NCBI RefSeq assembly: GCF_003334255.1 | Contig: NZ_QOWU01000179.1 | Length of the DNA: 978 bases | Reading direction: 5' to 3' (one strand) | Origin: Escherichia coli | GTDB lineage: Bacteria; Pseudomonadota; Gammaproteobacteria; Enterobacterales; Enterobacteriaceae | Shown here: piece by piece, positions 1 to 494 of the stretch | How the letters are laid out: each line of letters starts with the position of its first letter | How positions within the stretch are numbered: the first letter of the stretch is position 1 | Position numbers and translations under genes: made by a program | Notes under the pieces: model-generated | What the model saw: the letters and a program-made list of their open reading frames with translations, nothing else | Told to the model about the DNA's origin: nothing | Database searches by the model: none

Positions 1-230
1 TCTGCGTTGCGCAGGCAGGATCTGGCCTCCACGGATTGTCCGGCCCACCATACAGCGGTGGCTGCATTGACGGTTCCGCCGTTGCGTTCTGAATCCACCG
101 GGTCGATGAATTTCTCAAACTGCTTGCCCAGCTTTCCGGTGAACGGGTCGAAAAACACCGCCCCAATCGCGAATATGGCTGCGTCCGGTCCGTTACCCAG
201 TGTTTCGGTGTCAATCATGAGATGGTTCAT
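1..230 (-). CDS. DnaQ-like (DEDD) 3'-5' exonuclease, N-terminal 76 codons only; gene continues beyond window position 1
   Basis: Minus-strand ATG at 228-230, open to the window edge. Translation begins MNHLMIDTETLGNGPDAAIFAIGAVFFDPFTGKLGKQFEKFIDPVDSERNGGTVNAATAVWWAGQSVEARSCLRNA. Residues 6-12 (IDTETLG) fit the Exo I motif of DEDD exonucleases (acidic D and E two residues apart, then a Gly, close to the N-terminus), followed by a hydrophobic beta-strand-like stretch (AAIFAIGAVFF). A GGGG Shine-Dalgarno (complement of 239-242) lies 8 nt upstream of the ATG. The ATG overlaps the upstream stop by one base (TAATG). Family assignment is from motif recognition only, not a search. Confidence 0.6.
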   Translation of the reverse strand, partial: MNHLMIDTETLGNGPDAAIFAIGAVFFDPFTGKLGKQFEKFIDPVDSERNGGTVNAATAVWWAGQSVEARSCLRNA

Positions 231-460
231 TATGCGCACCCCTTCAGTTCGTCTGGGTTGGCGAGTATTGCAATCAGTCGTTCAATGGATGAACAGGTTT
301 CCTCCGGGGAGGTGTGCTTCTCTCTCGCTGTGTTAACCAGGTCATGCAGCAATTCGCAGATATGCGCACGCTCGGCTTTTCTTGCGGCAATGCTGATATG
401 TGCATGATGGTTAGCTGGTCTGGCGGTTATTTTTCTGCCTGGTGATTCGGCTGTTCTCAT
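230..460 (-). CDS. hypothetical small protein, 76 aa, basic N-terminus, His/Cys-containing; function unknown
   Basis: This is the ORF-track entry 230..484, but I place the start at the ATG at 458-460, not the TTG at 482-484. The ATG is preceded by AGGAG (complement of 468-472) with a 7-nt spacer, whereas the TTG extension would put that ribosome-binding site inside the coding sequence. Product: MRTAESPGRKITARPANHHAHISIAARKAERAHICELLHDLVNTAREKHTSPEETCSSIERLIAILANPDELKGCA. Stop TAA at 230-232 overlaps the next start codon. Five of seven Arg codons are AGA and two Ile codons are ATA. I do not recognise the protein. Confidence 0.75.
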   Translation of the reverse strand: MRTAESPGRKITARPANHHAHISIAARKAERAHICELLHDLVNTAREKHTSPEETCSSIERLIAILANPDELKGCA

Positions 461-494
461 TTGTTGACTCCTGAAAAAAGACAAAGGGAACCCG

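Follow-up and report, generated by a model that had tools for sequence, protein, structure and literature searches.

A small gene of P2-like phages overlapping an EcD-type exonuclease gene in a prophage of Escherichia coli: probable co-expression and functional independence

Introduction

EcD is the Escherichia coli DexA homologue of the "HREX" system (Kang et al., Nucleic Acids Res 2025, PMC12153337; GenBank HAK9828821.1) and, when plasmid-borne, it spares unmodified DNA, degrades the 5-hydroxymethylcytosine (5hmC)-containing DNA of phage T4 and protects E. coli from this phage; EcD alone is sufficient for the protection and is non-toxic. In the same work the function of the DexA family was described as dependent on the quaternary state, and the recognition of 5hmC was assigned to residues W152 and D169 of DexA. 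The present analysis concerns a sequence of 978 nucleotides (nt) from E. coli (contig NZ_QOWU01000179.1 of assembly GCF_003334255.1; "the window" means below this whole stretch), which comes from the early lytic (Cox-side) operon, here on the minus strand, of a P2-like (Peduoviridae) prophage and in which the stop codon of a small gene, encoding 76 amino acids (aa), overlaps the start codon of an exonuclease gene of the EcD type.

A preliminary description of the window had taken the two genes for a pair whose products are made in a fixed ratio and act together. The reading favored here, with a confidence slightly better than even, is that the small gene and the exonuclease gene are co-expressed and functionally independent. 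It is preferred because the genes of this region occur in mosaic arrangements, in E. coli TUM9803 a natural deletion has removed the core of the small gene, co-divergence of the two proteins is not seen, stop/start overlaps are frequent in the operon, a model of the two fused chains gives no support for an interface and EcD is active alone.

The Exonuclease Gene

The exonuclease open reading frame (ORF), beginning with MNHLMIDTETLG..., starts at the ATG at 230-228 and leaves the window at base 1, and its first 76 codons (1..230) lie on the minus strand, as do all the features described in the window. The full 193-aa protein, taken from the related locus L001, matches the Pfam family PF16473 (Rv2179c-like; E 2.7e-51, residues 2-183) and the exonuclease family phrog_255 (E 9e-60), and its best match by sequence in the PDB is given by the T4 DexA structures 8KEL/8KEN (E 1e-11). 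An NCBIfam search of the protein returned nothing, and among the PADLOC models it matches only a generic Cas-associated DEDDh model (E 2.8e-5). The DEDDh set D7, E9, D114, H166 and D171 is intact in the full gene; only motif I (D-x-E, with D7 and E9 in MIDTETL) is encoded inside the window, the other residues (D114 in SFDFPIL, H166 and D171 in AHTALGD) being located outside it and read in the full gene of 99.7%-identical genomes. On sequence grounds the protein is assigned to the Rv2179c/DexA family (PF16473) of DEDDh 3'-5' exonucleases, in agreement with the preliminary description, which had recognized a DEDD 3'-5' exonuclease and had made this dependent on the motifs beyond the window.

The similarity to EcD extends to details of the published construct. 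The alternative start Met5 (218-216) is the start used for EcD, and from this codon the window matches the gene-specific nucleotides of the EcD forward primer (ATGATTGACACCGAAAC) at 17/17 positions; the gene part of the reverse primer agrees, but for one inserted base, with the 3' terminus of the gene. The EcD residue A78, aligned to the tetramerization Asp (D90) of DexA, is A82 here, with the four-residue offset expected for a start at Met5, and W136 and E149 align with W152 and D169 of DexA, to which 5hmC recognition is assigned. The primer matches, the A78/A82 offset and the W136/E149 alignment leave very little doubt that the exonuclease is EcD or an almost identical allele, and by virtue of this near identity the allele of the window may be expected to degrade 5hmC-containing DNA. 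The earlier guess of a defense or counter-defense function fits the published anti-T4 activity of EcD.

The Small Gene and Its Product

The small gene (230..460; ATG at 460-458, TAA at 232-230) encodes a protein with the ends MRTAESPGRK...ELKGCA, which matches phrog_22206 from end to end (E 1e-52) and, more weakly and only with its core, phrog_12723 (E 1e-7); the members of both uncharacterized families are named only "hypothetical protein" in all sources. The ORF is short, has no Pfam or NCBIfam family and shows a fairly high ratio of nonsynonymous to synonymous substitution rates (dN/dS) within the E. coli clade (0.55), features that would suit a chance ORF in a leader region. This explanation is extremely unlikely, as the frame, whose disruption in close relatives had been named beforehand as a counter-indication, is intact in 53/53 loci of the earlier set, and in the later loci with enough upstream sequence the small gene is found in all except L065, phage ESSI2_ev239 and E. 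coli TUM9803, the last by a deletion. In addition, homologues of about 30% identity in Klebsiella P2-like phages retain the core motif, dN/dS within the Klebsiella clade is 0.25, a good Shine-Dalgarno sequence precedes the start codon, and the PHROG matches and a confident AlphaFold2 hairpin also speak for a coding sequence. The small ORF is a genuine gene and is moderately constrained.

A profile search of 1.84 billion cluster representatives gave only 21 matches, several of which are fragments or spurious long repeat proteins; therefore the family is narrow, and it is specific to P2-like phages. Pfam searches with the small protein and all 27 aligned homologues gave at best YtzH (E 4e-4, one member) and RHH_5 (E 0.04), NCBIfam holds no family for it, and the PADLOC defense models gave only AbiEi (E 0.009, 14 bits) for the protein and nothing for the Klebsiella homologue. 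Of the profile searches proposed earlier for both proteins, the one with the exonuclease led to PF16473 and the one with the small protein left it without a Pfam family. A profile search of the PDB retrieved only designed helical repeats (E 0.07 or worse), and a Foldseek search of the small-protein model against PDB and BFVD found nothing below E = 2.8; the helical hairpin is too simple for placement by fold.

In the AlphaFold2 model, built with 27 homologues, residues 1-15 have a predicted local distance difference test score (pLDDT) below 50, and two helices, 24-48 and 52-67, have pLDDT above 90. The protein is predicted to have about 22 disordered residues followed by a helical hairpin, the latter modeled with confidence, in line with the disordered N-terminus and helical segments proposed beforehand. 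The conserved core of the protein reads ARKxERAHLLxLLR ... TPEEIYSxIExW. The His and Cys clusters that had attracted attention are present in the protein of the window; among these positions H33 is the sole nearly invariant residue, C35, C56 and C75 being replaced by L, Y or other residues in relatives and the HHAH cluster being substituted in homologues of the Klebsiella type and in others. With neither the Cys residues nor the HHAH cluster conserved, a metal site is unlikely, and the idea of a metal-binding partner of the nuclease was abandoned.

Overlap and Translational Coupling

As the preliminary description had pointed out, the TAA of the small gene and the ATG of the exonuclease gene share a base in TAATG (228..232; the plus strand reads CATTA, and base 230 is common to both), and each gene has its own ribosome-binding sequence. 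The Shine-Dalgarno sequence AGGAG of the small gene (468..472) is located 7 nt before its ATG, and the motif CTTTTTCAGGAG at this site is kept in E. coli-type and Klebsiella-type loci; the Shine-Dalgarno-like AAGGGG of the exonuclease gene (239..244) is located within the 3' end of the small gene, 8 nt before the ATG. At the junction of the two genes, 107 of 132 related loci have an overlap of 1 to 8 nt, in the forms TAATG, ATGA or GTGA, and the remainder have gaps of 1 to 8 nt. A stop/start overlap and a Shine-Dalgarno sequence inside the upstream ORF, both conserved in relatives, are the features of a coupled pair, and the arrangement of these signals suggests that the expression of the two genes is probably coupled by ribosome re-initiation.

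Such overlaps are usual in this operon. The stop codon of the small gene overlaps (ATGA or TAATG) the next gene whichever it is, exonuclease, ParE-like or Dam methylase gene, and in the operon of E. coli DETEC-S792 stop/start overlaps are present at 8 of 14 successive same-strand junctions, from the DUF4761 gene to a MarR-family gene.

Gene Pairing in Related Loci

A collection of 152 related loci (numbered with the prefix L) was made and the genes downstream of the small gene were classified; one set of loci was seeded with the alignment A1, and is biased to close relatives, and a later set was seeded with the ParE-like gene that follows the exonuclease gene. The constant neighborhood of small gene and exonuclease, for which the preliminary description had proposed a survey, is not found, and the two genes do not always co-occur in either direction. 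Among the more distant homologues, the small gene stands without the exonuclease gene in L005 and L006, in which it overlaps the Dam gene directly, and in L008, in which the ParE-like gene and then Dam follow; a direct overlap with the ParE-like gene, followed by Dam, is common to L008 and L009. Three loci show the converse, an exonuclease gene with no small gene: L065, phage ESSI2_ev239 and E. coli TUM9803. In the last of these a natural deletion took out the core of the small gene, sparing its last codons, and the exonuclease and ParE-like genes are intact. Salmonella phage SW3 has the Dam and ParE-like genes and neither the small gene nor the exonuclease gene. The mosaic arrangements comprise small gene-exonuclease-ParE-like-Dam, small gene-exonuclease-Dam, small gene-ParE-like-Dam, small gene-Dam, exonuclease-ParE-like-Dam and Dam-ParE-like.

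The two proteins do not diverge together: the exonucleases that accompany small proteins of more than 90% mutual identity can share as little as 39%. Many E. coli genomes have an exonuclease gene with 97-99.7% DNA identity and a small gene with 90.0%, a contrast that indicates recombination between the two genes. As regards the other flank, a 92-aa ORF takes the place of most of the small gene in TUM9803 (L151 2145-2500), and in L019 (3243-3731) an in-frame fusion with a related N-terminal segment extends the small gene to a 162-aa ORF; the 5' flank of the small gene looks like a hot spot of recombination.

In place of the co-folding proposed earlier, the small protein was joined to the exonuclease by a (GGGGS)6 linker and modeled with AlphaFold2 as one chain from 22 paired sequences. 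The predicted template modeling score (pTM) was 0.59, the pLDDT of the small protein fell from 88-96 to 61-75 with its N-terminus still disordered, and no sign of an interface was seen.

These data bear on the proposal of a dedicated partnership, in which the small protein would serve the exonuclease as a regulator, an inhibitor, a specificity or an oligomerization factor and be kept in a fixed ratio to it by translational coupling. The two genes are adjacent and overlapping in all untruncated E. coli-type and Klebsiella-type loci, with the TAATG, ATGA or GTGA overlap conserved, and the dependence of the DexA family on its quaternary state (PMC12153337) makes a small modulator conceivable; moreover, the catalytically inactive orthologues described below are still coupled to the small gene and under purifying selection, which would fit a function based on binding. 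Against such a partnership stand the three small-gene lineages without exonuclease, the exonuclease genes without small gene (one of them by natural deletion), the absence of co-divergence, the fused model and the ability of EcD to work alone (PMC12153337). A dedicated partnership is, on balance, rather unlikely, and the earlier view of a fixed-ratio pair acting together is not sustained by these observations. If it were true that the small protein modulates EcD, this would be relevant to the control of modification-dependent nucleases; the evidence leans against it.

The ParE-Like and Dam Genes as Possible Partners

The 75-aa ParE-like gene (phrog_1525) is located just past base 1 of the window, on the same strand (L001 13340-13567). 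Its product matches PF24732, "ParE-like toxin domain" (E 1.2e-17), an NCBIfam search of it returned nothing, and its relatives in other phages are annotated as HigB-like or mRNA interferase; its stop codon overlaps the Dam start by 4 nt, and no obvious antitoxin gene is adjacent.

The small protein could in principle be the antitoxin of this protein, in a toxin-antitoxin module into which a nuclease gene was inserted. The PF24732 match is in favor, as are the direct overlap of the small gene with the ParE-like gene in L008 and L009 and the presence of the small gene in 77 of the 80 best ParE-like loci, the other three being truncated; the small protein, short, partly disordered and partly helical, presumably also resembles PaaA2-type antitoxins. 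Nevertheless, TUM9803, L065, SW3, ESSI2_ev239 and many unrelated phages have ParE-like genes but lack the small gene, the ParE-like gene is in turn missing from many loci that carry the small gene, and in the prophage of the window the exonuclease gene separates the two. The small protein has no homology to known antitoxins, RHH_5 being the best match, and the direct adjacency of type II toxin-antitoxin genes, in which the toxin is never without its antitoxin, is not what is seen for this pair; an antitoxin role is very improbable.

Dam is the most constant downstream neighbor of the small gene. In the earlier small-gene set, all the loci that reach far enough downstream carry it except L046, where Dam is missing from the roughly 2.9 kb that follow the exonuclease gene; Dam is present irrespective of the exonuclease or the ParE-like gene, most of the loci seeded with the ParE-like gene also have it, and the small gene overlaps it directly in L005 and L006. 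A functional partnership in which the small protein would modulate or time methylation is, however, quite unlikely: besides L046, the small gene is missing from phage SW3, which carries Dam and the ParE-like gene, the cassette of TUM9803 is without annotated Dam, Dam is common in P2-like early operons anyway, and the Pfam and Foldseek searches gave no sequence or structural link to known methylase regulators.

Catalytically Inactive Orthologues

The full DEDDh set is kept in only about 50 of the 141 loci with an exonuclease homologue. In about 80 loci, all of Klebsiella type, the homologue is without three of the five catalytic residues and without the Trp assigned to 5hmC recognition: E9 is changed to I or R, D114 to K, S or V or to a gap, and H166 to R, C, T, S or G, and the PWxYWNE segment, which holds this Trp, is lost in most Klebsiella-type orthologues. 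These sequences are full-length ORFs that still match PF16473 (E 8e-23) and have a dN/dS of about 0.13 within lineages, that is, they are under purifying selection; examples, from at least two lineages, are L002 (4174-4731), L113, L095, L053, L034, L047, L082 and L021. Judging from their residues, most Klebsiella-type orthologues look like conserved pseudo-exonucleases, the gene of the window itself not being among them. Their maintenance by purifying selection is the only surprising element of the analysis, and it lies outside the lineage of the window.

These orthologues give rise to a further explanation, in which the small protein and a protein with the exonuclease fold would make up a conserved module of two genes with a main role other than DNA hydrolysis. 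The part of the pair in conflicts between phages might then lie in binding or sensing, with a decoy or a sensor of DNA ends or modified DNA as examples, and the catalytically active E. coli EcD would be one variant of the module. This explanation is considered unlikely.

Functional Interpretation

In the favored explanation, that of co-expression with functional independence, the exonuclease would be a dimer-type DexA homologue that degrades the 5hmC-containing DNA of T-even phages and spares unmodified DNA, and, because of this activity, the prophage would carry it as a weapon against competing phages. The stop codon of the small gene would overlap the exonuclease start because the genes of the operon are packed end to end; ribosomes ending the small gene would probably re-initiate on the exonuclease gene, and the two proteins most likely form no dedicated complex. 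The small protein would be an independent accessory protein and, since its gene has, in related prophages, neighbors that encode small early proteins directed at the host (fil, dhr), we infer that it is most likely a host- or phage-directed binding protein of the early lytic phase.

Several points weigh against this explanation. The small gene directly precedes the exonuclease gene in essentially every untruncated locus of the E. coli and Klebsiella types, the two lineages with the best sampling, and this association exceeds what is expected for unrelated genes; recent linkage in a shared cassette could account for it. The fused-chain modeling is a weak test of an interface (a monomer model with 22 sequences, no predicted aligned error and no EcD dimer), and the EcD identity is drawn from primers and residue numbering. 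Finally, the operon is expected to be repressed in the lysogen, and this raises the question of when EcD is expressed and when a "defense" nuclease would be produced.

The arrangement is largely known and ordinary, and the exonuclease is a known enzyme of the EcD/DexA family. The annotation value of the analysis consists in placing the recently described EcD/HREX anti-T4 exonuclease in the early operon of a P2-like prophage, a position in which EcD would be a weapon of phage against phage and no core gene of the bacterium; the cassette around it (small gene, exonuclease, ParE-like gene, Dam) is mosaic, and its parts shuffle independently.

Prophage Context and Neighboring Features

The phage accessory setting recognized earlier is correct. 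The window is carried by about 30 of 5426 complete E. coli genomes, and the chromosomes of E. coli DETEC-S792 and MSB1_4I are 99.7% identical to it. In DETEC-S792 the P2-like prophage that holds the window sequence is integrated beside chpSB, and its gene order is integrase, helix-turn-helix repressor, Cox, DUF4761, DUF4754, a 41-aa hydrophobic peptide and a gap of about 210 nt, then the 76-aa gene, the 193-aa "3'-5' exonuclease", the 75-aa ParE-like gene and the Dam methylase gene, followed by several small genes, the replication endonuclease A gene and the portal, terminase and capsid genes. An identical layout is present in Klebsiella Peduoviridae phages (3LV2017, ST16-OXA48phi5.4 and the Kp48xx series). 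A megablast search of the window against a phage collection and an Rfam scan gave no match, a terminator scan found none, and a promoter scan gave two weak promoter-like sites, not above chance expectation.

Upstream of the small gene, the window contains the 3' part of the DUF4754-family gene (phrog_2549; 796..978), which belongs to the same operon, and the gene of the 41-aa hydrophobic, probably membrane, protein (674..799), annotated as hypothetical, which overlaps the DUF4754 gene by 4 nt. In the gap that follows, an unannotated hydrophobic ORF of 31 aa (MKNVKAILTIATVWVIFQVSALIWLALKIWE; 566-661, minus strand) was noticed; its frame is open in diverged E. coli-type loci at 72-75% identity, one of which has an in-frame insertion, and no obvious Shine-Dalgarno sequence precedes it. 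It may be a real gene for a small membrane protein. Further down the operon, beyond the window, a DUF4406 protein (L001 15021-15383) matches phrog_355, "nucleoside 2-deoxyribosyltransferase" (E 4e-38), and its gene is another nucleotide- or DNA-modification-related accessory gene of the cassette region.

The small gene is preceded by a non-coding leader (461..565) with a hairpin at 495-510 (AAGGCA-TTCA-TGCCTT) and then a T-rich stretch that runs into the Shine-Dalgarno sequence. The last 65 nt or so are common to the E. coli and Klebsiella prophages despite the approximately 30% identity of the small proteins, and their conservation exceeds that of the codons for the N-terminus of the small protein; in the alignment, read without L114, the order of the elements is TAATTAA, the GGCA...TGCC hairpin, CGGG, a T-rich run and AGGAG. 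The RNA fold of the leader is no more stable than that of shuffled sequence (z = 0.06). The leader could be a promoter, an attenuator or a processing site.

Comparison with Known Systems

The closest described system is EcD, with which the exonuclease shares the forward primer sequence at Met5, the primer match at the 3' end, the A78/A82 correspondence, the DEDDh residues and W136 and E149; the differences are that the identity was deduced from these features and that the reverse primer has one extra base. The published work (PMC12153337) treats EcD as a bacterial gene and mentions neither a prophage context nor an overlapping upstream ORF.

DexA of T4 and T6 (PDB 8KEL, 8KEN) has the same fold family and catalytic residues as the exonuclease, at 28% identity (E 3e-18). 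In contrast to DexA, the exonuclease lacks the tetramerization Asp (D90 in DexA, A82 here) and several DexA loops, and it is 193 aa long versus 227 aa. In T-even phages, as read in T6 (dexA.1-dexA, L152 59-984), dexA is also preceded by an ORF of about 80 aa, dexA.1, with a TAATG overlap as in the window; this arrangement is an analogy and not a homology, because hhalign of the small-protein profile against T6 DexA.1 gave a probability of 0.25%.

The third term of comparison is the Rv2179c-like family (PF16473), the HMM of which is matched by the exonuclease over its full length; a literature search on Rv2179c together with phage found nothing relevant. Rv2179c is a mycobacterial enzyme described as an exoribonuclease, whereas the closest characterized relatives of the exonuclease, DexA and EcD, act on DNA.

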